Notes: generated from the sequence alone by a model not told the origin. Positions 7,460-63,231 are shown, numbered from the stretch's first letter. The stretch is 64,000 nt of DNA from an uncultured Planctomycetales bacterium (GCA_964579435.1 CAZOGI010000011.1:18655-82654), one strand, 5' to 3'. Translations and numbers: made by a program.

Positions 7460-8065
7460 ATGAGGAACGGTCTTGCCTTTTTTCTGGCGTTGCTGTTAGG
7501 GATTAGCGCGTCATCTGCGGTCAGCGCCGCCGAGGATGCCTCCTGCGGCAACGGTTTCCTTAAGAATATCCAGGCGGTCGAATGCCTGGTGGGGTTTAGC
7601 ACGGGAAAGCTGCGGGAGCAGCGTGATTACCGGATGATCCCCTTGATGTTCGCCCTCGATTTCAATTTCAAGGAACTGCTGGAGAATAAGACAAAATTCA
7701 AATATTACGGCCTGCTCCAGTTCCAGATCGAGCCGTATATCTCGACGGTTTACCAGCCCGATCCCAACGTCGAGCTCGGCAACGGCTTTGTCCTGAAACT
7801 GGGCTTGTTGCCGGAGCGTTTCGCGTTCCAGCCGTACGTCAAGGGCGGGGCGGGGATGTCTTTTATGTCGCAGCACACCCGCGAGCAGTCGACGGGCTTC
7901 AATTTCTACGAGTATGTCGCCTTGGGCGGGCACTATTTCCTGAAAAAATCGCTTGCTGTTACGGTCGAGTACCGTTTCCGTCATCTCTCGAACGCCGGCA
8001 TCGACCATCCGAATAAGGGTATCGAGAGCCATTTCGGCATGGTGGGAGTCCTTTATTCTTTCTAG
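7460..8065 (+). CDS. pagL: Outer-membrane lipid A 3-O-deacylase (PagL family)
   Basis: Signal peptide. Beta-barrel ending in aromatic F. RFRHLSNAG matches the PagL His/Ser catalytic motif HxSNx. Confidence 0.7.
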   Translation: MRNGLAFFLALLLGISASSAVSAAEDASCGNGFLKNIQAVECLVGFSTGKLREQRDYRMIPLMFALDFNFKELLENKTKFKYYGLLQFQIEPYISTVYQPDPNVELGNGFVLKLGLLPERFAFQPYVKGGAGMSFMSQHTREQSTGFNFYEYVALGGHYFLKKSLAVTVEYRFRHLSNAGIDHPNKGIESHFGMVGVLYSF

Positions 8066-10645: not shown

Positions 10646-12231
10646 AGCCCTTCCTGTCCCTGAGCGTCCTGTTTTGGCTTCTTGCCGCGGCGGCGAATCC
10701 GTTCTGGGCCGGGTGGGCGTTTTTCACCGACGGGAAAATCGATTCCCCGCGGGGCTTGGCGCTGGTGCTCGCCGTTCAGGCGCTTTTGGGCGGGGCGGGT
10801 TTATTCTGGCTCCGGAGATCGGTTCCCGAAGGAGCGCGCGCGGCGGCCGCGCGGGCAACCTGGATCGTTTTTACCGCTGCCTTTTTCTTCGCTGCCGGCG
10901 GACTGGAGGTGCTCTTGTCCGACCGGTTTTCGTCTGCCGCAGAGATCCGCCCCGCAGGGTGCCTCGTTGCGGTTCTTGCCCTGTGTGTCGCGGTGAGTAC
11001 TGCGCTGTGTTTGCGCCTCGGCAAAAAAAAAGCCTTTTTCACCGGGGCGGCGTCAGTCCTTTTCGGCTGTACGGCTCTCATTCTGGCCGATGTTCTTGTT
11101 TCGTTCTTTGTTCCGCCCTGGCCGGCGCGGGTCCTGCACGGGCTTAAGCCGCGCGATGTCCCGCGGGTCTGGGGGTACCGCACCTTCGAGCAGTATAATA
11201 CCGATTTCAATTCCTGGGGGCAGCGCGACCGGGAACGCAGTGTCGTCCCCGGCTCAGGGGCGTACCGGATCGTCCTGATAGGGGATTCATTTCTCGAGCA
11301 GGGAGCTCGCCGGTCCTTAAGCGTGGCGCTGGAGCGCCAGGTGCACGACAAGGGGATAGAATTCGTCAATCTGGGCGTCTCGGCGACCGGCCCCGACGAT
11401 TACTATTACCGGCTCAAAGAGGTTGCGCTGCGGCTGCAACCGAAGGAATGCTGGGTGTTTTTGTTCTGCGGCAACGATTTTTCGTTAAGCGATCCAACCC
11501 TGCCGAATTCTTTCCTCGGCATCGTCTCGGTTGCGCCGCGCGGTTCTTTCCTGCAGGCGCTGCGGTTGCCACACCTGAATTTCCTTTTGGCTCCCCGGTC
11601 CCGGCGTTTCGATGAGATATTCGGCGCCCGCAGCCTTTTTGCTTCAGAGAAAAGGTTTTTCGATCGCCTCAGGAGCGCTCCTGACGAAGAAATGCCCGAG
11701 CTCTTGTCTGCGGTGCGCCCGGCGCAGGAACGGCCGCATCTTCTTGAGCGGTTGCGCGCGCGCGATCTGTCCCCGTTGTATCAGGCGCTGCGTTCCCCGC
11801 GCCCACAGATGTTGCGTTCCGATCTCCTGAACCGGATATTGGCATCTTGGGGGATGGGGCATGAGCGCGTCAGATCAGAAGACGTAGAGCGCGCCATCGC
11901 CTATCTGGCGGGGATGCGGGAGACGTGTCGCCGGGCCGGGGTCTCTTTGAAGATCGTGCTCATTCCCGATCCGTTGGTAGATAAGCGGGTGCAGCGTCTC
12001 TGGAAGCCGCTTTCAAACGGCGTGGATGTTTTCAGCGGCCAGCGAAACGCATGCCGTCAGGTGAAAAGCTGGTGCCGCGGCAGCGCGGGCTGTTCCGTCG
12101 TGGATCTGGAACCGGTCCTGGCCGGACGCTACGGCATGTACGGCACGTTCGATCCCCACTGGAGCGATCGCGGGATCGATACGGTCGCCCATTTTCTCGC
12201 GTCAGGGGTAGCGCGAAAGGAGCGGCGGTGA
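10642..12231 (+). CDS. Membrane-anchored SGNH/GDSL-family hydrolase
   Basis: Four to five N-terminal TM helices, then the IVLIGDSF, GNDF and DPHWSD SGNH blocks. ATGA overlap with recG. Confidence 0.6.
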   Translation: MKPFLSLSVLFWLLAAAANPFWAGWAFFTDGKIDSPRGLALVLAVQALLGGAGLFWLRRSVPEGARAAAARATWIVFTAAFFFAAGGLEVLLSDRFSSAAEIRPAGCLVAVLALCVAVSTALCLRLGKKKAFFTGAASVLFGCTALILADVLVSFFVPPWPARVLHGLKPRDVPRVWGYRTFEQYNTDFNSWGQRDRERSVVPGSGAYRIVLIGDSFLEQGARRSLSVALERQVHDKGIEFVNLGVSATGPDDYYYRLKEVALRLQPKECWVFLFCGNDFSLSDPTLPNSFLGIVSVAPRGSFLQALRLPHLNFLLAPRSRRFDEIFGARSLFASEKRFFDRLRSAPDEEMPELLSAVRPAQERPHLLERLRARDLSPLYQALRSPRPQMLRSDLLNRILASWGMGHERVRSEDVERAIAYLAGMRETCRRAGVSLKIVLIPDPLVDKRVQRLWKPLSNGVDVFSGQRNACRQVKSWCRGSAGCSVVDLEPVLAGRYGMYGTFDPHWSDRGIDTVAHFLASGVARKERR

Positions 12232-17009: not shown

Positions 17010-17749
17010 GATTGAAAGATACCGTTGCCCTGGTGACCGGATCGGCCCAGGGGATCGGCCGGGAGATCGCCTTGGCCTTTGCGCGCGAAGGGTCGGATAT
17101 CGTCATTACCGACATTAATCTGGAGAAGGCGCAGAGTACCAGCGGGGAGATCGAGGCTTTGGGGCGGCGTTCGCTTGCGCTTCAGATGAATGTCGCTCTG
17201 CCGCAAAGCGTTGACGAATGCCTCAACAAAATTCTTGACAAATGGGGAAAGGTTGATATATTAGTTAACAATGCGGGCATCACCCGGGACGGTTTGCTGC
17301 TGCGCATGAGCGAGGCAGACTGGGATGCGGTGGTGGACGTCAACCTCAAGGGGACGTTCAACTGCACCAAAGCGGTTTCCAAGGTGATGATCAAGCAGCG
17401 AAGCGGCCGTATCATCAACATCGCTTCGATCATCGGCGTGATCGGCAACGCGGGGCAGGCGAATTACTCAGCCTCAAAAGCCGGAATCATCGCTCTTACC
17501 AAAACAGCGGCAAAAGAACTCGCCAGCCGCGCTATTACGGTGAACGCCGTTGCCCCGGGGTTCATCCAGACCGACATGACTGCCAGGCTCTCCGATGAGC
17601 TGAAACAGAAGATGCTGGCAAGCATTCCGATGAACAAGCTGGGCACGCCTGCGGATGTCGCGGGCGCATGTCTTTTCTTTGCCGGTCCCGAGGCAGCATA
17701 TATAACCGGACAGACCCTCATAGTAGACGGCGGAATGGTTATGGTATAG
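17006..17749 (+). CDS. fabG: 3-oxoacyl-ACP reductase
   Basis: TGSAQGIGREIA, NNAGITRD, YSASKAG. Confidence 0.95.
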   Translation: MRLKDTVALVTGSAQGIGREIALAFAREGSDIVITDINLEKAQSTSGEIEALGRRSLALQMNVALPQSVDECLNKILDKWGKVDILVNNAGITRDGLLLRMSEADWDAVVDVNLKGTFNCTKAVSKVMIKQRSGRIINIASIIGVIGNAGQANYSASKAGIIALTKTAAKELASRAITVNAVAPGFIQTDMTARLSDELKQKMLASIPMNKLGTPADVAGACLFFAGPEAAYITGQTLIVDGGMVMV

Positions 17750-24647: not shown

Positions 24648-25511
24648 ATGAGGCTGTTGAGAGGGTTTACGCTCCTGGAGCTGGTCATTGTTCTCATAAT
24701 CATCGGTATCTTCTCGACCCTCGGCGTGGCCTGGTACGGGAAGTTTCTCGATGATTCGCGGGCATCCCTGTGTCAGGCGAACCTGGAGGCGCTCAAGGCC
24801 GCCCTGGATGTCTACGCGATGGAGCATGATTCCCTGCCGGCTGACTTAAGCAAGCTGCCCCCGGAGACCATAGAGCGCGCGTACGCGCAGATACTCAAGG
24901 ATGGCGGGTTGCGCCTGCAGCTGGCGTATCTAGCCGATCTAATGGATCAGCGTCAGTACGCGTATGCGGCGGATTTCCTGAAGAACGTCGCCGGCGGCAA
25001 TGTGAGCGTCACGATATGCCCGGTGCGCAAGCTGCAGGGCGGTGGGATTTCGTATGGTTTGAATGTGGCATTGCAGAGCATCTCCTACCTCGATTATCAG
25101 CTGTTGCCTGCCCTGACCCCATTGGTCGCTGACGCGAACGGGTCAACTTTTTCGGCAACCGCCTTGGGGGTCATAACCGGATCAGTCGATCGTCATCCGC
25201 TTTACGGCAGCAATGCCACCGGCAGCAGGGCGCTGGCTGTCTTGGCCGATGGGTTCGTCTATGAGTATCGCGGCGGCGTGCAGCAGCGGCTTCGCCCCAA
25301 GAAGACCAAAGACCGGGTGTATAAGAACATCACCTGGGCAACGGTCAAGGCCGCGTATGACAACGAGAAGGCATGCAAGAATGCCTGCAAAGCCTCTTCC
25401 CAGGCCGACGGCATCTCTTTTGAGACCAAGCAGGCGTGCTCCGGGTATTGCCGGACCCAGTACGGCAAGACCATAGACGATAAATGCAAGCTTATAGCGA
25501 CGTGCCCGTAG
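24648..25511 (+). CDS. Prepilin-type N-terminal cleavage/methylation domain protein with a Cys-rich C-terminus
   Basis: GFTLLELVIVLIIIGI class-III signal. C-terminal KACKNACK...CSGYC...CKLIATCP. Confidence 0.7.
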   Translation: MRLLRGFTLLELVIVLIIIGIFSTLGVAWYGKFLDDSRASLCQANLEALKAALDVYAMEHDSLPADLSKLPPETIERAYAQILKDGGLRLQLAYLADLMDQRQYAYAADFLKNVAGGNVSVTICPVRKLQGGGISYGLNVALQSISYLDYQLLPALTPLVADANGSTFSATALGVITGSVDRHPLYGSNATGSRALAVLADGFVYEYRGGVQQRLRPKKTKDRVYKNITWATVKAAYDNEKACKNACKASSQADGISFETKQACSGYCRTQYGKTIDDKCKLIATCP

Positions 25512-25524
25512 CGAAAGCGGTTTT

Positions 25525-27855
25525 TTGGTGAAGGCTGCATCCTCGCAGACGAAGCCGCAGTTAGGCGCCCGTCAGGTGCGTTGGGGGTTGGTTCTTCTGG
25601 CGGGCGTTTTTGCCCTGAACGTATCCGGGTATTTCCCTTTCCGGGGGCTGGATGATACCGCTGCCTGGTACGCGTATACCTTCTCGGCGAAGCGCTCTCC
25701 CGCCCGGTTTGTCGGTATCGAGATAGACGAGTATTCCCTGAAGCAGCTCGGGCAGCGCTGGCCGTGGCGCCGGGATGTGTATGCGCAGCTGGTGGATGTG
25801 GTCGGCAGGGAAGGGGCGCATACCCTGGGTTTCGACCTGGCGTTTGTCGGCGCCTCAGATTATCCCGACGATGATACGCGTTTCACCCAGGCTTTGCGCG
25901 CTTCTAAGGTGCGCACCGTCCTGGGTTATTTTTTCGACCCGCAAAAGGCCGCGGCGGTGTTTCCGTATGCGCCGCTGCGCGAAGCGGCCTTCTCCTGCGG
26001 GATGGTCAACACCCCTTTCGACCGGGACGGCAAAAACCGCCGCCAGCGGGCTTTTATCGAATATGAGGGGCAGCGGCTGTATTCTTTCTCGCTCGCCGTC
26101 GCCTCTGCTTTCCGGCAGGAATCTGAGGATGAGTTGAGCCGCCGGCTTCCGCTGCTGCCCGACAAGACCTACCGCGTCAACTACCGGATAAAACCGAAAG
26201 ATATCGTGCGCGTCAGCTTTTCCGATTGCCTCTTTTCCCTCGGGGAGCTCAAGCATCGTTTCGGCGATTCTTTCCTCAAAGGGGCGCTGGTGGTCGTGTA
26301 CCCGGCCTCGGATATTGTGCACCGCGATATCCGCGATACCCCCCTGGGCCGGATGCCGGGAGGATTGTTGCATCTCAACGCCATCGAGAATATCCTTGCG
26401 GCGCATCCGCTGCGCAACTCCGCGCTCTTGCTTTTGTGCTGTCTTCTCGTTTCCTATCTTGTTCTCTCCCGGGCGCTGGTGCGGCTTAATTTTTTGCAGG
26501 GGTTCCTGATTGCCGCGGGCATAGCGGTTTTCCTGCTGTGGCTGTCGGTGGCCGGCCGCTCCATCGGCCTGACCTTCGATTACGACAGCTGTATCCTGTA
26601 TCTTCTGCTCTATTATGCCGTCGGCTGGATCGATTCGTACCGGACCTTCACCGAGCGCATGAGGCGGATCAAGGCCAAGGCGACGCTCGACCCGCTCAGC
26701 AGGCTCTTTACGCTGCGGCAGTTTTATTTTTATCTCTTCCAGGAGATCAAGCATTTGCGCGTGCGCAAGAAGGTCTTCCTGGTTTTCATCGACCTGAAAC
26801 AGTTCGTCTCGGCCTGCGACGAGCTCTCGGTGGGGCAGACGCAGGATCTGTGGAAGGAGCTCGCCGCCCAGCTGGAGCTCCCGGGCAGTTTCTGGTCCTT
26901 GTACGCGCAGGGACAGCTCCTGGGCGCGGCGGTTTCGACAACGCGCAAGGCGAACGCGGAGTTCTGCGGGCTGCTGCAGCGGCTGCAGCAGCTCTTCTCC
27001 CGGCGGGCCTTGCCCGTTGATGTCTCTCTTGCCGCGGTGCCGTTTACCAGCAAATACCCGGTCGGCAGCGTGGTTCTGATGCTTGCCGAGAGCGCGGCAC
27101 AGGGAAAGGGTACGGCGGTTCTGCTCGCTGTCGCGCGCATGCGAGAAATGCTGCGGTCGGCTGCGCCGCAGCAGAAAGAGCACGCCTTCATCGAGAGCCT
27201 CGACGAAGATATCGAAGAAAAGAACACCCAGCTGCTCCTGCTCCTGGAGAATCTGAAGCGCGAACACGGCAAGACCAAAGAGGCGTTCTTCCAGATCATT
27301 TCTTCCCTGGTCAACGCCCTGGAAGCGAAAGACCCGTATACCGAGGGGCATTCGGAGCGGGTGAGCCGGTATGCGCTGCGCCTTGCCCTGACGGTAGGCT
27401 GGGGTAAGGAAGAACAGGAGAAGCTGCGCAAGGCCGCGCTCCTGCACGACCTGGGAAAGATCGGCATCCCGGACCAGGTGCTGCATAAGCGGGGGAAGCT
27501 GGACGATCAGGAGTTCGATATCATCCGTAAGCACGAGGTGATCGGGGTCAGGATCCTTGAGCCCCTGACCGAATTGCGCGAGATCCTTCCCTGGATCCTG
27601 TATCACCACGAAAAATGGGACGGCAGCGGCTATCCGCACGGCCTTGCGGGATCGTCTATCCCCGAAGGGGCGCAGATCATTTCGCTCGCCGATGTCTATG
27701 ACGCCCTGACGACCGGCCGGGACTATAAGCCGGCTTTCTCTCAGGAGGAGGCGCTGGCGGAAATTGAACGCAACAGCGGCAGACAGTTCAACCCGCAACT
27801 GGTCTCGGAGTTCGTGAAACTGATGCGGGGGGAGGGAAAGATACATGACACGTGA
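25525..27855 (+). CDS. CHASE2 sensor / HD-GYP c-di-GMP phosphodiesterase membrane protein
   Basis: N-terminal TM helix, periplasmic domain, three TM helices, then HDLGKIGIPD and HHEKWDGSGYP HD-GYP motifs. 776 aa. Confidence 0.8.
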   Translation: MVKAASSQTKPQLGARQVRWGLVLLAGVFALNVSGYFPFRGLDDTAAWYAYTFSAKRSPARFVGIEIDEYSLKQLGQRWPWRRDVYAQLVDVVGREGAHTLGFDLAFVGASDYPDDDTRFTQALRASKVRTVLGYFFDPQKAAAVFPYAPLREAAFSCGMVNTPFDRDGKNRRQRAFIEYEGQRLYSFSLAVASAFRQESEDELSRRLPLLPDKTYRVNYRIKPKDIVRVSFSDCLFSLGELKHRFGDSFLKGALVVVYPASDIVHRDIRDTPLGRMPGGLLHLNAIENILAAHPLRNSALLLLCCLLVSYLVLSRALVRLNFLQGFLIAAGIAVFLLWLSVAGRSIGLTFDYDSCILYLLLYYAVGWIDSYRTFTERMRRIKAKATLDPLSRLFTLRQFYFYLFQEIKHLRVRKKVFLVFIDLKQFVSACDELSVGQTQDLWKELAAQLELPGSFWSLYAQGQLLGAAVSTTRKANAEFCGLLQRLQQLFSRRALPVDVSLAAVPFTSKYPVGSVVLMLAESAAQGKGTAVLLAVARMREMLRSAAPQQKEHAFIESLDEDIEEKNTQLLLLLENLKREHGKTKEAFFQIISSLVNALEAKDPYTEGHSERVSRYALRLALTVGWGKEEQEKLRKAALLHDLGKIGIPDQVLHKRGKLDDQEFDIIRKHEVIGVRILEPLTELREILPWILYHHEKWDGSGYPHGLAGSSIPEGAQIISLADVYDALTTGRDYKPAFSQEEALAEIERNSGRQFNPQLVSEFVKLMRGEGKIHDT

Positions 27856-45393: not shown

Positions 45394-45636
45394 ATGGCGA
45401 AAAAGCTGGTGAAACTGGGTGTGAAGAGGGAGAAGGGATACCTCTATTACATCGGCAAAGACGGAGACGTCTATTGCGCAAAGATGGCCCGCGGAAGCAA
45501 AAAGGGCGGTAGCCCCAAGAAGGTTGCTAAAGCAGGCATCAAACGTCAGGAAGGGTGCTTATACTTCCTCGATAAGCAGGGCGACGTTTCTTGCGCGATC
45601 ATGAAAAGAGGCGGTAAGAAAAAGAAGAAGAGATAG
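45394..45636 (+). CDS. Small Lys-rich protein built from two ~35-aa tandem repeats, unknown function
   Basis: AGGAGG RBS. Repeats KLGVKREKGYLYYIGKDGDVYCAKMARG and KAGIKRQEGCLYFLDKQGDVSCAIMKRG. Poly-K tail. Confidence 0.55.
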   Translation: MAKKLVKLGVKREKGYLYYIGKDGDVYCAKMARGSKKGGSPKKVAKAGIKRQEGCLYFLDKQGDVSCAIMKRGGKKKKKR

Positions 45637-45650
45637 AAGCATGAGGTGCC

Positions 45651-45707
45651 GGGGATGCCCTCCTTCGGGCGCGTTTTTTCTGAACGAGCTGTTGGAGGGC
45701 ATCCCCA
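45651..45707 (+). terminator. Perfect 13-bp inverted repeat hairpin (GGGGATGCCCTCC / GGAGGGCATCCCC, 31-nt loop) with no clear T-run
   Basis: Read directly from the sequence. Lies between the small repeat gene and the GT1 gene. Confidence 0.35.
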
Positions 45708-45740: not shown

Positions 45741-46781
45741 GTGCGGATCGGTTTTTTTCGCCATAGCATCCTGAATCGCGGCGGCGACAAGGCGGCGCTT
45801 GCCTATGCGCAGGCGCTCTCCCGTCGCGGCCATACGGTCACTCTCTGGGTGCGGCGTATCGAGACGGTTTTTCCCCTTCCGGAGGGCGTACGCATCGAGC
45901 GCCTTGCGGCAGCGTCAAAGGCGGGCACCGTCTGGGCCGCCCTGACGCGGCGCCTTCCCGTCGATGTCGTGGTCGTGGACATCGTCGCCCTTGCCCTGTT
46001 GCTTTCGTTGCGCAATTCCGGCCGGGTGGTCTATCTGGCCGAAGATTACGACGAGTCGTACTACCGTTCTTTCCTGATGCGCGCGCTCATCCGGATCCTC
46101 TACCACTGCGCTTTGCAGGGACGCCGGATCCCGGCGGTTGCCGTCTCCGCGGAATTGGCGCAGATCTTCCGGCGGCGTTTCCGGCGGGAAGCCCCGGTCA
46201 TCCCCAACGGGATCGATCTGGATGAATTCCCTGTGTTGGCGCCCCGGCGGGAGCGCGCCGGGTGTTTGCGCGTGCTTGTTTTTTCCCGGGGCGATTACCG
46301 AAAAGGGTTCGATATCGCCCGCGCGGTGCTGGCTTCCAGCGTCCGGGAAGGGAAAGAGCCGTTTGAGGTCTGGGCAGTGGGGGAGGAGGCCAGAATAGAC
46401 GGCCTGACCGTCGTCAACTACGGGTTTGTCGCGCCCCGGCGCGTACACGAACTCCTGCGGGAAGCGGATATTCTGCTCTATCCGACCCGGCACGAAGGTT
46501 TGCCCTTTTTCGTTCTCGAAGCCCTTGCCTGCGGCTGTTGCGTCGTGACGACGACGGCTGCCGGGGTCGTGACCGACGGCGTCGATGCTTTGGTGAGCGC
46601 ACCCGGCGATGCGCGGCTTCTGCAGCGGCATCTCTGCGCACTCCTGAGCGATCCCTCCTTGCGGGCGCGCCTGCGTGCCCAGGGCTACCGGACCGTGCAG
46701 CGCTATTCTTTCGGGCAGAGCGCGCAGCGTCTGGAGGCGTTTCTCGGCGAGGTCTGCGGCAGCGGGGGCTCTCGGCCATGA
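45741..46781 (+). CDS. Family-1 (GT4-type) glycosyltransferase
   Basis: C-terminal EGLPFFVLEALACG E-x7-E-like motif. Confidence 0.8.
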   Translation: MRIGFFRHSILNRGGDKAALAYAQALSRRGHTVTLWVRRIETVFPLPEGVRIERLAAASKAGTVWAALTRRLPVDVVVVDIVALALLLSLRNSGRVVYLAEDYDESYYRSFLMRALIRILYHCALQGRRIPAVAVSAELAQIFRRRFRREAPVIPNGIDLDEFPVLAPRRERAGCLRVLVFSRGDYRKGFDIARAVLASSVREGKEPFEVWAVGEEARIDGLTVVNYGFVAPRRVHELLREADILLYPTRHEGLPFFVLEALACGCCVVTTTAAGVVTDGVDALVSAPGDARLLQRHLCALLSDPSLRARLRAQGYRTVQRYSFGQSAQRLEAFLGEVCGSGGSRP

Positions 46782-48634
46782 AACGGACCAGAATCGATGC
46801 CGGGTATCTGGTCATCGCGGCGGTGGCGTTGTTCTGGGTGATCCTGGTCAGCCTCAGATACCTGTTCTTTGGTTTCTTCGACTGGAACCTGGCGATCCAT
46901 ACGCAGATCATGAATTCCCTGCTGCGGCACGATACGGCGTTGGCGCTCATGGGACGGCAGCATTTTCTCGCCAATCATCTCAATCTCATCGCCTTCCCGC
47001 TTCTTCCCTTCTATGCCCTCGCGCGGCATCCGCTCTTTCTGCTCTATCTGGGTGTGGGGTCCGCCGTTGTTGCCGCAGCCTGCTTTTACCGCCTGGTTCA
47101 GGATGTCCTTCCCCGGCCGTGGCGATTCGCCGCCTTGCTTGTTTTCCTCCTTTATCCGGCGCTCTGGCACGGGATCCTCTATGAGTTTGATTTCTCTGTC
47201 CTGAGCGTCGCTTTCTGGTCGCTCATGCTGCTTTCGTTCCGCCGGGAACGGTTGCCCTGGTCCCTGTTCTGGTGCATCCTGGCGCTCCTGTGCAAAGAAG
47301 ATGCGTTTCTCCTGGGGCTGGGCTGGGGCGTCTATGCCGCGCTTTTTACCCGGATACGTCTGCGCTGGCGGGCGATTTTCCTGCTGGTTCCGGCTGCCTA
47401 CGGTTTCCTGTCTTTCCGCCTGCTCATTCCGTTCTTCAGTGCGGGCAAGCCCTATTTCTATTCATTCCTCTTTGACGGGGCAGGATCAGCGTTCCTGCAA
47501 CCGCCGCAGATGATCTACGCGAAGCTTTCCGCGGGCGGCTCCTATCTGTACCAGTTGTTCGCTCCGGTCGCATTCCTGCCGTTCCTGAGCGCCTCGGCCG
47601 TAGCCTTTCTGCCCTTCTGCGCAATGCAGCTTTTCTCATCGAACCCTTCCCAGCAGACCGTCTATTTCCACTATGCCCTTGTTGCCATACCGTTTGTCTT
47701 CTGGGGATTTCTGGCCGGATTGCGGAAGCTGCGCGCGAAGAATACGCCGGGGCTCCTCGCGGCGGTCCTGGTGACCTGTTTTTTGTTTGAGGCAGCTTCG
47801 CTTCCCTATGATAAAATAGCCCGGAGTGTGCGCCTTGCAGGCCCGTATTCGGTGCGCCGCTACGTTATTGCCTGGGTTCGTTCGATGCCTGCGGGAGCGC
47901 GGGTGGTCTCGGGTTTTCGTTTCCTGCCGCTTCTGGTGCGCGAGCACGCGGCGTACGCCTTTCACGTTCTTTTTTCAAAGGCCGGGCTTCCCGGCTCGTT
48001 CGATTACGCCCTGCTTGATTTCAGCGAACCGCTTTTTCAGCGCTACTACCCGCTCGACGGGGGGCTTATCCTGCGGGAGTTCCTGCAGCGCCACGGCCTC
48101 TCGCCCGCGGCCAGCGTCGGCGACATCGTTTTTTTCTCCCGCGCCGCAGCGGCGCCGCAGCTGGTGGAGTTTCTCGGCGAGCAGCCGGATCCTGAGAAGG
48201 CGCTGGTGAAGCTGGGGGAGGAGCTGGCACTGGAGAGCTGTTCTTTTCCCGAAACGGGGCGCGCCGGTTCGCCCCTTGAGCTGCGGTTGCGGTGGCGTAA
48301 GCTGGGCGAGAGCCGCGTCAACCACGGGGTTCTCTTTTTGCTGGTTGACAGCCGGATGCGCGTCTGCGTGCAGGCGCAGCATTCCATCGGCTACCGGATG
48401 TACCCGACGCGTTCCTGGAAGACCGCAGCGGTCGTGCAGGAGCGTTTCCGGATGCCGCTGCCGGAGGGGATGGCAGGCACGTATACCCTGTACGTTTTTT
48501 TCTATCCATGGATCTGCGATTCCCTGCCCGGTGTCCCGGACGGGGACCGCGAGGTTGATCTCCTGACGTTGCGGGAAGGCAGCAGCCGGTATATCCCGCT
48601 GGGCAGTGTGCGTATCGAAAAAGGAGGCAGGTGA
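46778..48634 (+). CDS. Large polytopic membrane protein, DUF2079-like; putative GT-C-fold glycosyltransferase
   Basis: ATGA overlap. About 10 predicted TM helices plus a ~250-aa C-terminal soluble domain. Confidence 0.5.
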   Translation: MKRTRIDAGYLVIAAVALFWVILVSLRYLFFGFFDWNLAIHTQIMNSLLRHDTALALMGRQHFLANHLNLIAFPLLPFYALARHPLFLLYLGVGSAVVAAACFYRLVQDVLPRPWRFAALLVFLLYPALWHGILYEFDFSVLSVAFWSLMLLSFRRERLPWSLFWCILALLCKEDAFLLGLGWGVYAALFTRIRLRWRAIFLLVPAAYGFLSFRLLIPFFSAGKPYFYSFLFDGAGSAFLQPPQMIYAKLSAGGSYLYQLFAPVAFLPFLSASAVAFLPFCAMQLFSSNPSQQTVYFHYALVAIPFVFWGFLAGLRKLRAKNTPGLLAAVLVTCFLFEAASLPYDKIARSVRLAGPYSVRRYVIAWVRSMPAGARVVSGFRFLPLLVREHAAYAFHVLFSKAGLPGSFDYALLDFSEPLFQRYYPLDGGLILREFLQRHGLSPAASVGDIVFFSRAAAAPQLVEFLGEQPDPEKALVKLGEELALESCSFPETGRAGSPLELRLRWRKLGESRVNHGVLFLLVDSRMRVCVQAQHSIGYRMYPTRSWKTAAVVQERFRMPLPEGMAGTYTLYVFFYPWICDSLPGVPDGDREVDLLTLREGSSRYIPLGSVRIEKGGR

Positions 48635-48636
48635 TC

Positions 48637-49518
48637 ATGCAGAATCGGTTCCGTGCGCTTGTCCGCGGCATGAGGCCCGCGCAACTGGTCAAGAGCGTTT
48701 TTGTCATGGCGCCCCTCGTTTTTGGCGGGAGAGTATTCGACCCGGCGTCAGTAAAAGCTGCGTTGACGAGCGCGGCGGCTTTCTGCGCCGCGGCAGCCGG
48801 ACTGTACCTTTTTAACGACGTGCTCGATCGCAGCCGTGACCGGGAGCATCCGGTGAAATCGAACCGTCCCTGCGCAAACGGCGAGCTGCCGGTGCGTGTC
48901 GCGCTGGTGGCCAGCATCCTGTGTCTGGCGGCTGCGGTGTATGTGGGGATCTTGGTTGAGCAGCGGGCGGTCATTGCGCTGATCGGCGGCTACGTCGCCC
49001 TGAATCTGGTCTATTCGCTCTTGCTGAAACATTGGGTGCTTATTGATGTCTTTGCGATCGCGCTCGGTTTTCAGCTGCGCATCTGGGCCGGCGCCGCAAG
49101 CATCTCGATCGAGCCGTCGGAATGGCTGCAGGCCTGCGTATTCCTCCTGGCTCTTTTCCTGGCGTTCTGCAAGCGCAAATACGAAATGTCTTACCTGAAC
49201 GAGCGGGCCCAGGCCCACCGCAGCGTCTACGCCGTCTATACCCGTGAGTTCCTCACGCAGTGTATCACGATGTTCGCCGGCCTGACGATCCTGGCGTATG
49301 TTTTGTACTGTTTGTCTCCCGATATCCTGCGCCGTCCGCACGGCACCCGGATGCTCTTTTCGACTCCCTTTGTCGCCTATGGCATTCTGCGCTATCTTTT
49401 CGTGGCCGAGACGCGTACCACCCCCGGGGATCCGACCGAACAGCTTTTCACCGACCCTGGTTTGGCAGCGGCGGTCTGCGCGTGGATAGTCTGCGTTTTC
49501 CTGATGCTTTATGTCTGA
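48637..49518 (+). CDS. UbiA-family prenyltransferase resembling decaprenyl-phosphate phosphoribosyltransferase (DPPR synthase)
   Basis: NDVLDRSRDREHPVKSNRP matches the NDxxDxxxDxxHPxKxxRP signature. Seven to nine TM helices. AAGGAGG RBS 9 nt upstream of ATG 48637. Confidence 0.7.
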   Translation: MQNRFRALVRGMRPAQLVKSVFVMAPLVFGGRVFDPASVKAALTSAAAFCAAAAGLYLFNDVLDRSRDREHPVKSNRPCANGELPVRVALVASILCLAAAVYVGILVEQRAVIALIGGYVALNLVYSLLLKHWVLIDVFAIALGFQLRIWAGAASISIEPSEWLQACVFLLALFLAFCKRKYEMSYLNERAQAHRSVYAVYTREFLTQCITMFAGLTILAYVLYCLSPDILRRPHGTRMLFSTPFVAYGILRYLFVAETRTTPGDPTEQLFTDPGLAAAVCAWIVCVFLMLYV

Positions 49519-50680
49519 TCATCCGTGCGTCCCTTGGAGCTGGGTTGTTTTTCAGGATACCTCCCTGCGTATCAAGCTCCTGAAACTGTTGGACCGGTTT
49601 ATCGGCCCGGTGCTGTGCCGGATCGCCGTTTTGTTGCTCAGGCCGGCTCCCGCACGCAGCCCGGCGCCGCAGCGGTTTCTCGTCATCCGGCCCGGAGGGA
49701 TCGGGGATGCGGTCTTGACCATTCCCCTGGTGCGGGAGCTCTCGCGCAGTTTCCCGGGAAGCCGCATCGATATACTCGCCCAGCGGCGCAATCGCGCGGT
49801 TTTCGCATTAGCCGACGAGGGTGGGGGGGCGGTATTTTCTGCCGACGGATTCGCGTTTTTCCGGGTCCTGGCGCAGTTGCGCCGGAGGCGCTACGATGCG
49901 ATCTTCGACACCGAGCAGTGGCATATTTTTTCGGCATTGACCGCTGTTCTGGTCGGGTCGGGCGAGCGGGTCGGTTTCGACAGCCGGCCCCTGCGTTCGC
50001 GCCTGTACCATCGGCGCGTCCCGTTTAGGCTTGAGGAATTTGAGGCGCAAAAGTTCCTTTCCCTGCTGGATGCGTATGCCCCGCAGGAAAACCCGCGCGC
50101 GATAGAGGTGCCGTTTATTCGGCTGCGCGCTGCGGCGCAAAAGCAAAGGAGCGCGCAGGGATTCTGTGTCGTCATCTCGGTGAGCGCGCACGCGCGGCTG
50201 CGCCTGTGGCCGTTTGAGCGTTGGGAGGAGTTGTGCCGCTTCCTGATCGCCAAAGGACGTACGGTGATTCTGGTCGGTTCTGTCGCGCAGCGGCCGCTTG
50301 CCCGGCGGCTTCTGGAGGCGGTCCGTGGCGCCGGGGCGTTCTCCTCGTTCGTAGGGGAGACGACGTTGGCCGAAACCGCCGCGTTGATTGCCGCAGCCGA
50401 CTATTATATCGGCATGGATTCGGGGGTGCTGCACCTGGCGTACGCGCTGGGCAAACCTGCGGTCGGCCTCTTCGGCCCGGGGATTGCGGCGCAGTGGGGA
50501 CCGCCGGGTGAGTTCTACCGGCAGGTCGCATCGTCCGTGGCTTGCCGGCCCTGCGGCCGGCTCAGTTATACCCCGCCCTGTCGGCGACCGCGGTGCATGG
50601 AGGCGATAACGGCAGAGGCGGTGGTGCGGGCTGCGCAGGAGTTGGAAGAAGTCATTCGGCAAAAGGGGCAAGGACGGTAA
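49511..50680 (+). CDS. Family-9 glycosyltransferase (heptosyltransferase-like)
   Basis: FLVIRPGGIGDAVLTIPLVRELSR N-terminal GT9 motif. C-terminal Cys-rich CRPCGRLSYTPPCRRPRC. Confidence 0.7.
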   Translation: MSDHPCVPWSWVVFQDTSLRIKLLKLLDRFIGPVLCRIAVLLLRPAPARSPAPQRFLVIRPGGIGDAVLTIPLVRELSRSFPGSRIDILAQRRNRAVFALADEGGGAVFSADGFAFFRVLAQLRRRRYDAIFDTEQWHIFSALTAVLVGSGERVGFDSRPLRSRLYHRRVPFRLEEFEAQKFLSLLDAYAPQENPRAIEVPFIRLRAAAQKQRSAQGFCVVISVSAHARLRLWPFERWEELCRFLIAKGRTVILVGSVAQRPLARRLLEAVRGAGAFSSFVGETTLAETAALIAAADYYIGMDSGVLHLAYALGKPAVGLFGPGIAAQWGPPGEFYRQVASSVACRPCGRLSYTPPCRRPRCMEAITAEAVVRAAQELEEVIRQKGQGR

Positions 50681-58901: not shown

Positions 58902-59096
58902 ATGATACCGCGATTAATGGACATAGATGAGTTGGCCGATTACCTGAGACTGAAGAAGCAGACCATTTACAATTGGCTGCATGAGGGCAAGATTGCAGGG
59001 ATCAAGGTCGGGGGGGTCTGGCGGTTCGATCGGCGCGATATCGATGACTGGCTTAAAAGCCGGCGCCGTTTCAGCAAGAGCGCACTCAAACAATGA
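58902..59096 (+). CDS. Excisionase/Xis-family helix-turn-helix DNA-binding protein
   Basis: 64 aa. LKKQTIYNWLHEGKIAGIKVGGVWRF matches the MerR-like excisionase HTH pattern. Confidence 0.65.
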   Translation: MIPRLMDIDELADYLRLKKQTIYNWLHEGKIAGIKVGGVWRFDRRDIDDWLKSRRRFSKSALKQ

Positions 59097-60652
59097 AAAC
59101 ATCTCTCGGTATCTATTTAGGTAATAAGTACATCGGTATTGTCGAGGCCAAGGGCAAGGCCGTCCTCAATACGACGCGCATCAGCAGGGCCCAGGTCTCC
59201 GGAGATGGCCTCGAGGAAAAAGTCCCGGATGATCTGAAGCTGGTGACGTTGTTCAAGGATGAGTTCCGCAAGCTCAATATAACCTCAGCCGATGCCACGC
59301 TGTGCCTGTCAGGCAACGATCTGATCATCCGCACCTTCGAGATGCCGATCCTGCCGAAGAACGAGCTGAAGAGCGCGGTTAATTTCGAAGCGAAGAAATA
59401 CATCCCGTTTAAGATCGAAGAGCTCATCGTTGATTTCCAGGTGGTCGTTGACCGGATCAACCGCAGGAACCTGGTTGTTTTTTGCGGCATCAAGCGGGAG
59501 ATCCTGAACAAATATGCCAACGTTGCCAAGCAGTGCGGCTTTACTTTGGCGCGCATCGAATATTCAGGTTTCAGCCTGGTGCGCATCCTTGGCCTTTGCG
59601 GGTTTACGCGCAAAGGCATCAGCTGTCTCATCGGGCTCGACGCACAGGAGGGAGATGACCTGCAGTTTGCGGTCATGGAGGACGGGTTCCCGCTTTTCAG
59701 CCGCGACATATCCCTCGTGAGCGCGGTCCCTGAGTCCGTCTCAGGTGCCGGCGGCGCCGCATCCGCGGAAGTCACGGTCATGGACCGCCTGAAAACGGAA
59801 CTGCGTGTCTCCTTCGATTATTTCCAGAGGAAATTTCCTTCCAAGAGCCTCCAGAAGATTCACTTTATCGCCGCCCAGCAATACCATGCCGAGTTGAGCG
59901 CTTTTGCGCGCGATCTGGGGATGGATGCCAAATTCGCTTCGGTCGACAAGTATCTTGAAAAGGCCGGCGGTTTTTCTTTGAGCGTCCTGAAAGGCCTCAG
60001 CGCCGCGTTTGCCCCGTCAATCCCGACCGCTGTCAGGCTGAACCTGGTTGCGGCTCAGACCCGCCTGCAGGCGCAGCCGCGCGAACGCCGGATTCAATTC
60101 GATTTCGCTTCGTTTTTTCAGGATCTCTCGATCGATTTCAAGGCGGTCCTGCTGGGGATCTTCATCTGCGCTTCGGTGTGGGGGTATGGGATGTACCAGC
60201 GGTATCCGGTCCAGGAAGCCATCGCGACGGCGATAAAAGAGCGGCCGGAGGTGCCTTCGATACAGGGCGATCCGGCGCCGGATGCCCTGCAGAAGACCGA
60301 ATCACAGTTTTCCAAAAAATACGATACCCTCAGCAAGCTCGTCAAAGATCAGGTTTTTTTCACCGAAATACTCGATTCGCTGCCCCGCCTGACCCCCAAA
60401 GGGGTTTGGTTACAGGGTTGCGCGATAAAGAAGCTCCCGAAAGAATCCGGGTTGGAGTGTGATTTGCGCGGGAGCGCTTTTCTGGGCGACGCCAATGAGG
60501 AAGGGCAGATGATCCGTGAGTTTGCCGCCCGGCTCCAGCAGAACGAGCAGTTCGCGCGGTATTTCAAGAAAGTCGATATCTTGTCCCTGGAACGGGCGAC
60601 CCGTAACAAGTTGACGGTTACGCAGTTCGCCATTTCATGCAGGAGTAAATAG
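59093..60652 (+). CDS. pilM: Type IV pilus assembly protein, PilM (actin-like ATPase) fused to a PilN-like TM/periplasmic domain
   Basis: PilM-like N-terminal ~350 aa. TM helix AVLLGIFICASVWGYGMY at about residue 365. C-terminal periplasmic domain. Confidence 0.7.
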   Translation: MKTSLGIYLGNKYIGIVEAKGKAVLNTTRISRAQVSGDGLEEKVPDDLKLVTLFKDEFRKLNITSADATLCLSGNDLIIRTFEMPILPKNELKSAVNFEAKKYIPFKIEELIVDFQVVVDRINRRNLVVFCGIKREILNKYANVAKQCGFTLARIEYSGFSLVRILGLCGFTRKGISCLIGLDAQEGDDLQFAVMEDGFPLFSRDISLVSAVPESVSGAGGAASAEVTVMDRLKTELRVSFDYFQRKFPSKSLQKIHFIAAQQYHAELSAFARDLGMDAKFASVDKYLEKAGGFSLSVLKGLSAAFAPSIPTAVRLNLVAAQTRLQAQPRERRIQFDFASFFQDLSIDFKAVLLGIFICASVWGYGMYQRYPVQEAIATAIKERPEVPSIQGDPAPDALQKTESQFSKKYDTLSKLVKDQVFFTEILDSLPRLTPKGVWLQGCAIKKLPKESGLECDLRGSAFLGDANEEGQMIREFAARLQQNEQFARYFKKVDILSLERATRNKLTVTQFAISCRSK

Positions 60653-60653
60653 G

Positions 60654-61160
60654 ATGGCAGGCGAAACCCCCGGGATCCTCTCGAACAAGAGTTTTTTCCT
60701 GAACGCCGCGGTTGTACTCCTGGCCGTTTTCGGGGCGCTGCAGATTCACAAGATGAACGGCAAGGAGATGGTGCGGCTGCAGGATGAATTGTCTTCACAG
60801 AAAAAAAAGAACGAATTGCGCAAAAAGATAATCGGCCTGGAATCGAAGATCGAACGCCTCAGGCCGCTCTTCCCGCAGCAGAATCCTTCCGATGTGATGC
60901 TGGGGGTTTCGGAGATGGCGCGGGCAAGCGGGCTGGTCGTGAATTCGGTCCGTCCTTCGGGCACGGTTACCCAGCCGGATTATTTCAACCACGTCTACGT
61001 GCTGTCGGTGGGGGCGAAGGATTTTCATCAGCTCGGTGATTTTGTCAGCAAACTGGAGAACGCAAAAGAGATTTTTGTCTTGAACGAACTCCAGCTTAAC
61101 CCCCAGGCGAACGAAAAATACACCGTATCGGTTGCCGTTGCGCGCATCGAGATGCGCTGA
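60654..61160 (+). CDS. pilO: Type IV pilus assembly protein PilO
   Basis: N-terminal TM helix, coiled coil, C-terminal domain. Position between pilM/N and pilP. Confidence 0.65.
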   Translation: MAGETPGILSNKSFFLNAAVVLLAVFGALQIHKMNGKEMVRLQDELSSQKKKNELRKKIIGLESKIERLRPLFPQQNPSDVMLGVSEMARASGLVVNSVRPSGTVTQPDYFNHVYVLSVGAKDFHQLGDFVSKLENAKEIFVLNELQLNPQANEKYTVSVAVARIEMR

Positions 61161-61176
61161 ACGGGTGAGGACGCTT

Positions 61177-61680
61177 ATGACGAGAGAGAAGAGGAACAAC
61201 CGGAAGGGGCGCCGGAGGCCGGGGCAATGGCTGCCCCTGCTGATTGCCGCCTGCGCCCTGTTCGTGCGTGAGGCATCGGCTGTCCCCTCCCAGTATAAAG
61301 CGATGGAAGAGTATAAGCGCTCGGAAAACGCGCCCGTATCCGGCACGGAGAAGATCGAACGCAAAAAGGTCCAGTACGCCGCCAAGAAATATCCCGATCC
61401 TTTCAAGGATCCGACGGCGCTCACCAAAGGCGCGGGCCCTGGTAAAACCCGGGAAGGCGAGCGTCCGCTCCCGCCTCTGCAGGTTGCCGGAATTACCTGG
61501 GGCGGCATTTTCCCGATGGCGATCATCAACGGGCGCGTCCTCCGGGAGGGGGATACGATCCAGGGGGCAAAGATCATTAAGATCGCCGAGGACGGCATAA
61601 TCGTTCTCTTTGATTCCCGGCAGCATACGCTGTCCGCTCCTTCGGCGGCGTACCGGCAGCAGAAAAAACAGAAAGAATAA
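61177..61680 (+). CDS. pilP: Type IV pilus assembly lipoprotein PilP-like
   Basis: Lipobox IAAC. DPF motif and C-terminal beta-domain (GRVLREGDTIQGAKIIKI). Confidence 0.55.
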   Translation: MTREKRNNRKGRRRPGQWLPLLIAACALFVREASAVPSQYKAMEEYKRSENAPVSGTEKIERKKVQYAAKKYPDPFKDPTALTKGAGPGKTREGERPLPPLQVAGITWGGIFPMAIINGRVLREGDTIQGAKIIKIAEDGIIVLFDSRQHTLSAPSAAYRQQKKQKE

Positions 61681-61692
61681 AGGGAGGGCACG

Positions 61693-63231
61693 ATGAAGAG
61701 AGTGGCCATGTTCGGTCTTATCTGTACCGTTCTTCTGACGGGTATTCCCTGGCACGGGGTTAGAGCCGAGCCTGTCCTGGGGATGGCTGATCCGACCCTG
61801 GTCATGCCCGATCCGGAGCCGATGATCTCGATGGACTTCAAGGATGCCTCGCTCAAGGATATCCTTAAGGTCTTTTCGATACAATCGCGCCTCAACTTTA
61901 TCGCTTCCCAGGCGGTCCAGGACCGCAAGATGACGCTCTACCTGGACAAGGTCCCGCTCAACAAGGCGATGGAGAAGCTCTTCGACGCCAATAACCTCTC
62001 CTACGAATTGGACCGGACATCCGATATCTTCATCGTCAAAGACTGGGGGGCTCCGGTCCGCGAAACGATCACCAAGATATACGCCCTGCGCTATACGTCG
62101 CTTCCCAATTCCAATATCCGGCGCGAGATCAATAAGAACCTTGCTTCCGGGGGCGGTTCCACGCAGGGCGGAGGGGATATTGTGGCGGTCGTCAAGAACG
62201 TCCTGAGCGCAAACGGCAAAGTTGTCGAGAATACGCGTACCAACAGCATCATCGTCACCGATATCCCCAAGCAGTTCGAGATCATCGATTCGATCATCGC
62301 CAAGCTCGACGTGCCGATACCCGAGGTGATGCTCGAGGTCGAAATGCTCGATGTCCTGAAAGCGACCGTGGATAAGATGGGAGTGTATTTCCCGGATTCC
62401 ATCATGTCGCTGGATATGAGCGCCAATTCGCGCATGACCAAATTCCCGTTCGGCAACAAAGCGCAGAACGGACAGGACTGGACCCTGGAGATGGACGATG
62501 CTTCCGCAACGGGATGGGAGTTCGATCCCTGGCGCGCGTCGCATTTCGGGCCGACGGTCTTTTCGTTCCTCAATGCTAATTTTGCCCTTAACCTCATCAA
62601 ACAGCAGACCGACACCAAGACCCTGGCGCGCCCGCGGATCATGACGCTCAACCACGAGACCGCGGAGATCAAGATCGTCACGCAGGAAACGGTCGGGCAG
62701 AGCGAGGTCAGGCAAGGCGAAGGGACCGCCAGTACCACGACCGTCACCGCCGAGCGCTTTGAAACCGGCGTGACGATGCGGGTCACCCCGCAGATCAACA
62801 TGGAGACGGGCGAAATTACCATGTTCGTCATGCCGTCGGTTAAAGACGTTTCCTCCTCTTCCCTCACCGAATTCAACACCAAGGATCCCGAAGAGCGCAC
62901 GACAAAATCCGTCATCACGGTCAAAGACGGCGAGACGATCATCATCGGCGGATTGATCCACAACGCGTTCAACGAGATCAAGCGCCAGGCCCCCGGCCTC
63001 GGCGATATCCCCATCCTGGGGGCGCTCTTCCGGCACCGCAATAAAGACCGCGACCGCGAGCGGGAGCTGCTGGTGTTCATCACCCCGCGCATCGTCCGTG
63101 ACCCGCGCTTCAAGATCGCTTCATCGACGCCGATGCCGGTCATGCCCGAGCGGGAGCAGGCCCGTTCATATGACGATTTTAACCGGGATGCGGTGGTCGC
63201 GACGAGCCTGAATGAACTTGACCGGTACTAA
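61693..63231 (+). CDS. pilQ: Type IV pilus secretin PilQ (GspD/secretin family)
   Basis: Secretin C-domain GGLIHNAFNEIKRQAPGLGDIPILGALF...LLVFITPRIV. Confidence 0.9.
   Translation: MKRVAMFGLICTVLLTGIPWHGVRAEPVLGMADPTLVMPDPEPMISMDFKDASLKDILKVFSIQSRLNFIASQAVQDRKMTLYLDKVPLNKAMEKLFDANNLSYELDRTSDIFIVKDWGAPVRETITKIYALRYTSLPNSNIRREINKNLASGGGSTQGGGDIVAVVKNVLSANGKVVENTRTNSIIVTDIPKQFEIIDSIIAKLDVPIPEVMLEVEMLDVLKATVDKMGVYFPDSIMSLDMSANSRMTKFPFGNKAQNGQDWTLEMDDASATGWEFDPWRASHFGPTVFSFLNANFALNLIKQQTDTKTLARPRIMTLNHETAEIKIVTQETVGQSEVRQGEGTASTTTVTAERFETGVTMRVTPQINMETGEITMFVMPSVKDVSSSSLTEFNTKDPEERTTKSVITVKDGETIIIGGLIHNAFNEIKRQAPGLGDIPILGALFRHRNKDRDRERELLVFITPRIVRDPRFKIASSTPMPVMPEREQARSYDDFNRDAVVATSLNELDRY

Follow-up and report, generated by a model that had tools for sequence, protein, structure and literature searches.

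Within a 64,000-nucleotide (64-kb) stretch of DNA from an uncultured Planctomycetales bacterium (GCA_964579435.1, CAZOGI010000011.1:18655-82654), here called the window, we analyzed a compact module of four genes on the + strand at 45741-50680 (coordinates throughout are positions in the whole window), which encodes in order a GT4-type glycosyltransferase (GT), a polytopic membrane protein of the Pfam family DUF2079, a UbiA-superfamily protein and a GT9 enzyme. Our analysis places the UbiA-superfamily protein in the decaprenyl-/polyprenyl-phosphate phosphoribosyltransferase (PPPRS) group, and we think it reasonably probable that this protein and the DUF2079 protein form a donor/transferase relationship in periplasmic pentofuranose glycosylation. 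A system of this kind was described in 2024 (PMC11127046) and the logic of a lipid-linked donor used by a GT-C transferase is established, so that no new principle is involved; what is new is DUF2079 as the GT-C partner, the embedding of GT9 and GT4 genes in the module, and the swap of the donor synthase at a syntenic Omnitrophota locus. A first-pass annotation made from the sequence had read the module as a polyprenyl-phosphate-pentose glycolipid system of great rarity among Gram-negatives, which proved right in substance and overstated as to rarity.

The identification of the donor synthase draws on profile, structure-database and motif comparisons. The best NCBIfam match of the UbiA protein is the decaprenyl-phosphate phosphoribosyltransferase (DPPRS, or DPPR synthase) model NF008977 (227.1 bits, cut-off 234), and NF008978 (197.6 bits, cut-off 207) and a third DPPRS model (115.8 bits) also match, whereas the UbiA-type and heme o synthase models score 19-30 bits and no other prenyltransferase model, those for GGGP synthase and chlorophyll synthase included, exceeds 40. 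At E<=0.01 its matches among PDB sequences are solely two DPPR synthase chains, 8j8j (E 3e-24) and 8j8k. The NDxxDxxxD...HPxKxxRP signature on which the first-pass annotation had based the same assignment is intact (N60-D61-x2-D64-x3-D68 and H71-P72-x-K74-x2-R77-P78) and is accompanied by K179-R180-x2-E183; these motifs align with those of the Mycobacterium tuberculosis DPPRS, and all columns that are invariant in an alignment of 23 sequences, comprising this protein and 22 homologues, are retained. Pfam detects no extra domain, such as a fused HAD phosphatase. On these sequence grounds the protein belongs to the PPPRS group and not to the MenA/UbiA enzymes, and the corresponding activity is predicted. 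That its adjacency to DUF2079 might be meaningless, the protein being an aromatic or quinone-type prenyltransferase (MenA/UbiA/heme o synthase-like), is a view to which the naming of many homologues as '4-hydroxybenzoate polyprenyltransferase' by JGI pipelines and the slight shortfall against the NCBIfam cut-offs might lend some color. It is nonetheless very improbable, being essentially refuted by the profile ranking (198-227 bits for the two best DPPRS models against 19-40, with no MenA model among the matches and no clustering with MenA/UbiA), by the PDB matches and by the intact DPPRS-specific block NDxxDxxxDRxHPxKxxRP; furthermore, the DUF2079-UbiA gene order recurs in at least six other loci.

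For the DUF2079 protein, PF09852 is the sole Pfam match, and our searches of the literature returned no functional paper on DUF2079 or PF09852. The family is sizeable, with 1,863 representatives at 50% identity matching the window protein at E<=1e-3, and the closest relative among the 1.84 billion representatives searched is at most 37% identical. A profile of ten homologues (alignment A1) compared with PDB sequences gave noise only, with no solved GT-C recognized by sequence, and a metagenome scan with DUF2079 patterns gave no match. An AlphaFold2 model built on the ten homologues has a mean pLDDT (predicted local distance difference test) of 70, rising to 80-96 across most of the membrane domain, and comprises a helical membrane domain (residues ~8-370), a mixed periplasmic domain and a C-terminal β-sandwich (~470-618). 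A Foldseek comparison of this model with the PDB yielded eight matches at E<=0.001, all of them GT-C enzymes (ALG12, ALG9, PglB, ArnT, STT3) that use polyprenyl-phosphate- or -diphosphate-linked donors; ALG3 and PIG-U appear lower in the list, and the top matches have E values of 1e-4 to 4e-2 and Foldseek probabilities of 0.99-1.00. For the C-terminal part the matches are Ig-like sandwiches that bind lipids or sugars. In an alignment with the 149 closest 50%-identity representatives (146 sequences aligned, the window's included), the motif of the first external loop (EL1), for which the subfamily consensus is D-[WF]-D, reads D35-W-N37 in the window protein, and its first Asp is present in all 146 sequences; Q43, H67, E136, E174, Y299 and D414 are likewise retained. 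Taken together, the modeled structure supports a GT-C fold with an Asp at the junction of the first transmembrane (TM) helix and EL1, in agreement with the earlier suggestion that this large polytopic protein is a candidate GT-C. The acidic-loop motif, the lack of which the first-pass annotation would have counted against its reading, is present as to its first Asp and altered as to its second, a point to which we return below.

Gene context at a syntenic locus bears directly on the proposed function. The backbone panC-aspDH-small basic ORF (open reading frame)-DUF2079-X-uvrA-TPR is common to the window, to a JGI metagenome contig (L001), where it continues into exbB, exbD and pilM, and to a Candidatus Omnitrophica metagenome-assembled genome (L006); a scan with a two-sequence DUF2079 alignment gave four loci. 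Between the window and these two relatives UvrA is 63-66% identical, which makes an Omnitrophota origin of the window very probable, and the flanking housekeeping genes are 46-66% identical; the DUF2079 proteins of L001 and L006 are 62% identical to each other and each only 27-29% identical to that of the window. The UbiA, GT4 and GT9 genes are absent from both relatives, and X is there a 501-516-aa fusion of a GT2 and a methyltransferase domain, the GT2 domain of which finds its best matches in AglJ, dolichyl-phosphate hexose transferase, PgfS, PpgS and ArnC, all makers of polyprenyl-phosphate sugars. At the syntenic locus DUF2079 is thus constant and the lipid-linked-donor synthase variable, which is the pattern expected if DUF2079 is a GT-C using polyprenyl-monophosphate sugars. 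The coupling of an AglJ/ArnC/PpgS-type GT2 with DUF2079 resembles the two-step systems ArnC/ArnT and GtrB/GtrC and argues in the same direction; the window departs from these in that a UbiA-type synthase dependent on phosphoribosyl pyrophosphate (PRPP) replaces the GT2 donor synthase, and L001 and L006 depart from them in the fusion of the GT2 to a methyltransferase domain.

The association of DUF2079 with a PPPRS recurs elsewhere. A metagenome scan with the UbiA alignment gave 80 loci, and in three short contigs among them (L013, L021 and L037) a C-terminal DUF2079 fragment, detected with our own hidden Markov model and confirmed by Pfam, ends directly 5' of the UbiA gene, and L021 has the order DUF2079-UbiA-GT9 seen in the window. 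UbiA is followed by GT9 in L021, L014 and L034, and the GT9 proteins of these loci and of L095 are 34-36% identical to that of the window and share its N-terminal extension. In a neighbor-joining tree the UbiA proteins of L013, L021, L037, L014 and L034 form one clade, and a database search started from L021 showed this clade to be large and labeled Omnitrophica/Omnitrophota by NCBI. The longer loci place the pair in polysaccharide surroundings: L093 has DUF2079-DUF2079-UbiA amid GT2, GT11 and methyltransferase genes, L094 the same trio with genes for a GT2, a Wzx-type flippase, a methyltransferase and a GT4 after it, and L095 the order GT9-DUF2079-UbiA, after which come a WbpB/D/E-like set and a Wzx-type gene. 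DUF2079 lies directly upstream of the PPPRS gene in six of the seven clade loci with upstream DNA (L093, L094, L095, L013, L021, L037), and four of the eight clade loci, or five of nine with the window, have a related GT9 next to UbiA or DUF2079. We propose, tentatively and as something a little short of probable, that DUF2079 is an unrecognized GT-C family using polyprenyl-monophosphate sugars, which in Omnitrophota would serve as a dedicated transferase of polyprenyl-phosphate-linked ribofuranose (polyprenyl-P-Ribf) for lipopolysaccharide (LPS), with a donor synthase that is exchangeable at the syntenic locus.

Some further features of these loci deserve mention in their own right. The tandem DUF2079 proteins (L093 7013-9957, L094 4526-8472) are 37% and 46% identical within each pair and have a single PPPRS downstream, which suggests two transferases served by one donor. 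Near the DUF2079-UbiA genes of both loci there is also a conserved gene pair (L093 4916-7016, L094 9449-11409) encoding a weakly HAD-like protein and a 428-466-aa protein without a family match, the latter 35% identical between the loci; the window has no homologue of either. The HAD-like protein displays DxDxT and GDxxxSD motifs with sub-threshold Pfam HAD matches (E 0.008-0.19), and may be regarded, as a lead only, as a candidate phosphoribose phosphatase. In L034 (85-4162) the PPPRS gene is followed by genes for an FkbM-type methyltransferase, a GT9 and a MurJ/MatE-like flippase of the MOP family, the last being a possible flippase partner for the lipid-linked pentose of that locus.

Several observations weigh against the donor/transferase interpretation. 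The UbiA protein falls slightly below both NCBIfam cut-offs given above, and the neighbor-joining tree places it outside the Omnitrophota clade of DUF2079/GT9-linked UbiA proteins, to which it is 38-43% identical, and groups it loosely, on long branches, with PMT_2-linked sequences; on account of this position we claim a shared arrangement and not a proven orthology of the whole cassette. The DUF2079 protein is a predicted GT-C, the model of which is of low confidence in the C-terminal domain, and the Foldseek TM-scores are modest (0.30-0.53). LPS as the acceptor is wholly inferential, a guess that we hold with less confidence than the PPPRS-DUF2079 relationship. Searches of the 64-kb window brought to light no phosphoribose phosphatase (HAD or PAP2), no small SMR/GtrA/MATE flippase and no epimerase, which leaves two components of the published model, the phosphatase and the flippase, missing locally. 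Finally, the second residue of the EL1 motif is Asp in 144 of the 146 aligned sequences, the exceptions being the Asn of the window protein and one Gly.

The Asn is encoded by AAC at 46886-46888, one G-to-A transition away from GAC, and this codon may reflect either a mistake in the assembly or a genuine change in the active site; if genuine, the D37N substitution may attenuate the enzyme. Hence, a different possibility is that this DUF2079 copy has been impaired or repurposed, the PPPRS product being used by some other GT-C encoded elsewhere or the module being in decay. The rarity of a non-Asp residue at this position would fit such a scenario, as would the lack of any relative above 37% identity in the database searched and the divergence of DUF2079 from its L001/L006 counterparts (27-29% identity) in comparison with the flanking housekeeping genes (46-66%). 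We nevertheless hold it to be unlikely, given that the frame is full-length and without frameshift (618 aa, most of the 149 closest representatives having 600-660), that the translational coupling is retained, and that D35 and the six other residues listed above are in place; a single-base assembly error would equally account for the Asn. The donor/transferase relationship remains our preferred interpretation.

The nearest described counterpart is that of Citrobacter youngae O1/O2, in which a PPPRS with a fused HAD phosphatase (ORF15) makes undecaprenyl-P-Ribf from PRPP, a small transporter (ORF14) is proposed to flip it, and ORF12, a GT-C that founded family GT136, carries a C-terminal carbohydrate-binding module and has ArnT as its closest known sequence relative, adds α-Ribf to the O antigen in the periplasm; epimerases, where present, turn the donor into xylofuranose (Xylf) or arabinofuranose (Araf) (Kelly et al. 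2024, PMC11127046). Our searches of the literature on GT136 and on Omnitrophota LPS found nothing beyond this paper. The window module agrees with it in several respects: the UbiA-type PPPRS enzymes share their Asp-rich motifs, each GT-C has about 11 TM helices, with a catalytic Asp following TM1 and a β-rich domain at the C-terminus, the PPPRS gene of the window adjoins a GT-C gene as in systems of this kind, the lack of an epimerase implies Ribf in each case, and the sister loci of the window module also lie in LPS/polysaccharide gene clusters. It differs in that a DUF2079 protein stands in the place of GT136, in that its PPPRS has no fused HAD domain and neither the cluster nor the window contains a transporter gene, and in that its operon also includes GT9 and GT4 genes. 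The mycobacterial decaprenyl-phospho-arabinose pathway (Rv3806c, Rv3807c, DprE1/DprE2, Emb/Aft) shares with the module a homologous first enzyme, as the 8j8j match indicates, and the logic of a lipid-linked pentofuranose donor with a GT-C transferase. Unlike that pathway, the window is without DprE1/DprE2, a PAP2 phosphatase or an Emb/Aft-type (Arabinose_trans) GT-C, its host is an LPS-bearing diderm, and the place of decaprenyl phosphate is presumably taken by undecaprenyl phosphate.

By analogy with these systems, and given the family membership of the UbiA protein, the PPPRS would first move 5-phosphoribose from PRPP to polyprenyl phosphate, presumably undecaprenyl phosphate, at the cytoplasmic face of the membrane. 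A phosphatase would then strip the 5-phosphate and a flippase bring the polyprenyl-P-Ribf to the periplasmic face, neither being encoded here. In the periplasm the DUF2079 GT-C would transfer the pentofuranose to an envelope glycan, a role suggested by its fold, by the conserved pairing with the PPPRS gene and by the exchange of donor synthases, and its C-terminal β-sandwich might serve to bind the acceptor, like the corresponding modules of GT136 and the Emb enzymes. Co-localization suggests that the cytoplasmic GT9 and GT4 enzymes would build or extend the acceptor, which would most likely be the LPS core or an LPS-linked chain, judging from the company of GT9 and Wzx-type clusters.

With regard to the second of these steps, the four genes leave no room for a transporter gene between them, a crude hydropathy screen found no small protein with four TM helices among the window ORFs, and the window has no homologues of the HAD-IB and GtrA proteins of locus L097 or of the HAD-like proteins of L093/L094. 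Either dephosphorylation and flipping are thus provided for elsewhere, or the pathway does without them. Since no phosphatase was found, a bolder extension is that the transferred group could be ribofuranose-5-phosphate, which, if true, would be a new kind of envelope modification.

As to the identity of the sugar, the first-pass annotation had reported no DprE1/DprE2-like epimerase in the window, and our tblastn searches of the 64 kb bear this out: a DprE1-like query from L004 gave no match better than E 1, and a DprE2-like query of the short-chain dehydrogenase/reductase (SDR) type retrieved only generic SDRs of 24-25% identity at 1705-2274 and 17033-17623. Because no such epimerase lies nearby, ribofuranose is the most likely sugar. 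The same pathway might instead transfer D-arabinofuranose or xylofuranose if epimerases of the DprE1/DprE2 or ORF13 type elsewhere in the genome, of which only these 64 kb are in view, convert the polyprenyl-P-Ribf. There are precedents for this in mycobacteria, Pseudomonas aeruginosa Pa5196 and C. youngae O2, and DprE1/DprE2-like pairs adjoin the PPPRS gene in Myxococcales (L004), on a Flammeovirgaceae plasmid and in about seven of 88 surveyed loci. However, epimerases, where used, normally adjoin the PPPRS gene, both in these surveyed loci and in published systems (PMC11127046), and besides the negative result in the window no FAD_binding_4 or DprE1-like gene was called within 10 kb on either side of L093-L095, so we regard this variant as fairly unlikely and retain ribofuranose.

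That the organism has an LPS-containing outer membrane, and hence makes LPS, follows from a PagL-like lipid A 3-O-deacylase gene at 7460-8065 on the + strand (PF09411, E 4e-20). The principal alternative to an LPS acceptor is a protein, a type IV pilin or pseudopilin, with DUF2079 acting like TfpW or a PMT-type O-glycosyltransferase. The first-pass annotation had drawn attention to type IV pilus genes about 8 kb downstream, and these are indeed present, with PilM/N, PilO and secretin genes (pilMNOQ) at 59093-63231, 8.4 kb from the module. Their link to it proved weak, in that uvrA, a TPR gene and exbBD intervene and pilMNOQ forms part of the syntenic backbone found also in L001, where UbiA is lacking. 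P. aeruginosa Pa5196, where the pilin is arabinosylated by means of TfpW, a PPPRS and DprE1/E2 homologues, provides a precedent (cited in PMC11127046) and resembles the window in pairing a Gram-negative PPPRS homologue with a GT-C, but TfpW is encoded beside pilA and that system comprises epimerases, whereas the window module has no adjacent pilin gene, the neighbors of DUF2079 being the GT4 and UbiA genes. A prepilin-like gene lies at 24648-25511 in the window, and in Victivallis (L008, 9403-11797) a DUF2079 homologue is encoded directly 3' of prepilin-type N_methyl and T2SSF genes; the latter is a single locus, and the Omnitrophota DUF2079-UbiA pairs occur in Wzx-type polysaccharide clusters and next to GT9. 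A protein acceptor is thus of low probability, and we continue to favor an envelope glycan.

If the proposed relationship is correct, the 2024 model of pentofuranose addition extends to Omnitrophota, to our knowledge an uncultivated phylum whose envelope chemistry is essentially unknown. The conserved pairing with a PPPRS, together with the presence of a GT2 synthase at the same site in relatives, furnishes a testable biochemical hypothesis for DUF2079, which could become a new GT-C family of the CAZy classification. More generally, the modular exchange of lipid-linked donor synthases is a possible route to surface-glycan diversity.

The structure of the module itself is compact (Table 1). All four ORFs are confirmed, with stops and starts that overlap or abut, and the family labels and positions of the first-pass annotation stand for each, except that its 'GT1' corresponds to the Pfam group 1 and hence to a CAZy GT4-type enzyme.

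Table 1. Genes of the module and the putative terminator preceding it
Feature	Coordinates	Strand	Description	Supporting match or evidence
GT4-type GT-B glycosyltransferase, cytoplasmic	45741..46781	+	346 aa, GTG start	Pfam Glycos_transf_1 / Glyco_transf_4
DUF2079 polytopic membrane protein, predicted GT-C	46778..48634	+	618 aa	PF09852 E 2.5e-23
UbiA-superfamily PPPRS / DPPR-synthase-like	48637..49518	+	293 aa	PF01040, NF008977
GT9 heptosyltransferase-like GT-B enzyme	49511..50680	+	389 aa	Glyco_transf_9 PF01075 E 7e-30
Terminator-like GC hairpin and T-run	45649..45677	+	in 104-bp gap 3' of small basic-protein gene	pattern scan and sequence

The GT4 and DUF2079 genes join in an ATGA stop-start overlap, the DUF2079 gene starting at the ATG at 46778 and not at the TTG at 46538. 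Its TGA (48632-48634) is separated by two nucleotides from the UbiA ATG, which is preceded at 9 nt by the Shine-Dalgarno sequence AAAGGAGG, with a GTG at 48631 as an alternative start; the translational coupling of these two genes that had been noted earlier is thus evident in their abutting stop and start. UbiA and GT9 overlap by 8 nt (ATGTCTGA), and uvrA starts 7 nt 3' of GT9. The hairpin is, on weak evidence, the probable upstream boundary of a GT4-DUF2079-UbiA-GT9 transcription unit, an assignment weakened by the fact that the number of terminator-like sites in the region equals chance expectation. The GT4 protein matches PF13692 (E 1.1e-17), PF00534 (E 2.7e-15) and PF13439 (E 1.6e-7) and no NCBIfam equivalog at cut-off. 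The GT9 protein has an N-terminal extension and an RPGGIGDAV motif, and reaches none of the heptosyltransferase I, II and III (WaaC, WaaF and WaaQ) equivalogs, against which it scores 89.7, 87.7 and 84.1 bits for cut-offs of 134.6, 185.3 and 170.2. A foreign origin of the module was considered, and its GC content is unremarkable; the T-rich codons of membrane proteins are the probable cause of a strongly negative AT skew at 46-50 kb.

Beyond the loci discussed above, homologues of the PPPRS at 38-45% identity are spread over Omnitrophota, Myxococcales, Burkholderiales, Planctomycetota, Chloroflexi and other lineages, and PPPRS-like proteins are found on 90 plasmid or secondary-replicon records. 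The idea, voiced in the first-pass annotation, of Pseudomonas pilin arabinosylation as nearly the sole Gram-negative example is therefore outdated: homologues are present in many diderm phyla, and periplasmic pentofuranosylation of Gram-negative glycans by a PPPRS, a flippase and a GT-C is called widespread by the authors who described it (PMC11127046). Genes for PMT_2-type GT-C enzymes overlap or flank the PPPRS gene in Burkholderiales, Omnitrophota and other loci (L011, L002, L003, L009). A Lactococcus plasmid carries a full set comprising a GT-C-like hypothetical protein, PPPRS, HAD-IB phosphatase and GtrA; its GT-C-like protein gave no match to the ten-homologue DUF2079 profile A1. Among the metagenome PPPRS loci L013-L092 the commonest same-strand neighbor is DUF362 (11 of 108 neighboring proteins), which is also seen in L009 (7870-9006), and GHMP kinases (five) and UDP-glucose dehydrogenases (four) recur beside the PPPRS. 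DUF2079 too is encountered in another setting, namely on a Planctomycetales contig (L007, 1988-6975), where it is inserted into an ABC-2 transporter operon with a GldG-like auxiliary component and separates the ATPase gene from the permease gene.

Elsewhere in the window, the prepilin-like gene (+ strand) encodes a 287-aa protein with a prepilin-type N-terminal methylation motif, and directly 3' of it, at 25525-27855 (+), lies a gene for a 776-aa membrane protein; this was considered as a second GT-C and rejected, since it joins a CHASE2 membrane sensor with an HD (HD-GYP-like) domain. Downstream of recG, at 10642-12231 (+), a 529-aa polytopic membrane protein with a weak, sub-threshold match to the AlgX SGNH acetyltransferase may, going by this match, be a glycan O-acetyltransferase. 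Upstream of the module, at 45394-45636 (+), an ORF with the terminator-like hairpin on its 3' side was rejected as a flippase, since it encodes a soluble, lysine-rich protein of 80 aa in which a unit of about 35 aa (KLGVKRxKGxLYxIxKxGDVxCAxMxRGxKK) occurs twice; the protein matches no Pfam or NCBIfam family, and is kept at the equivalent position in L001 (9648-9896).

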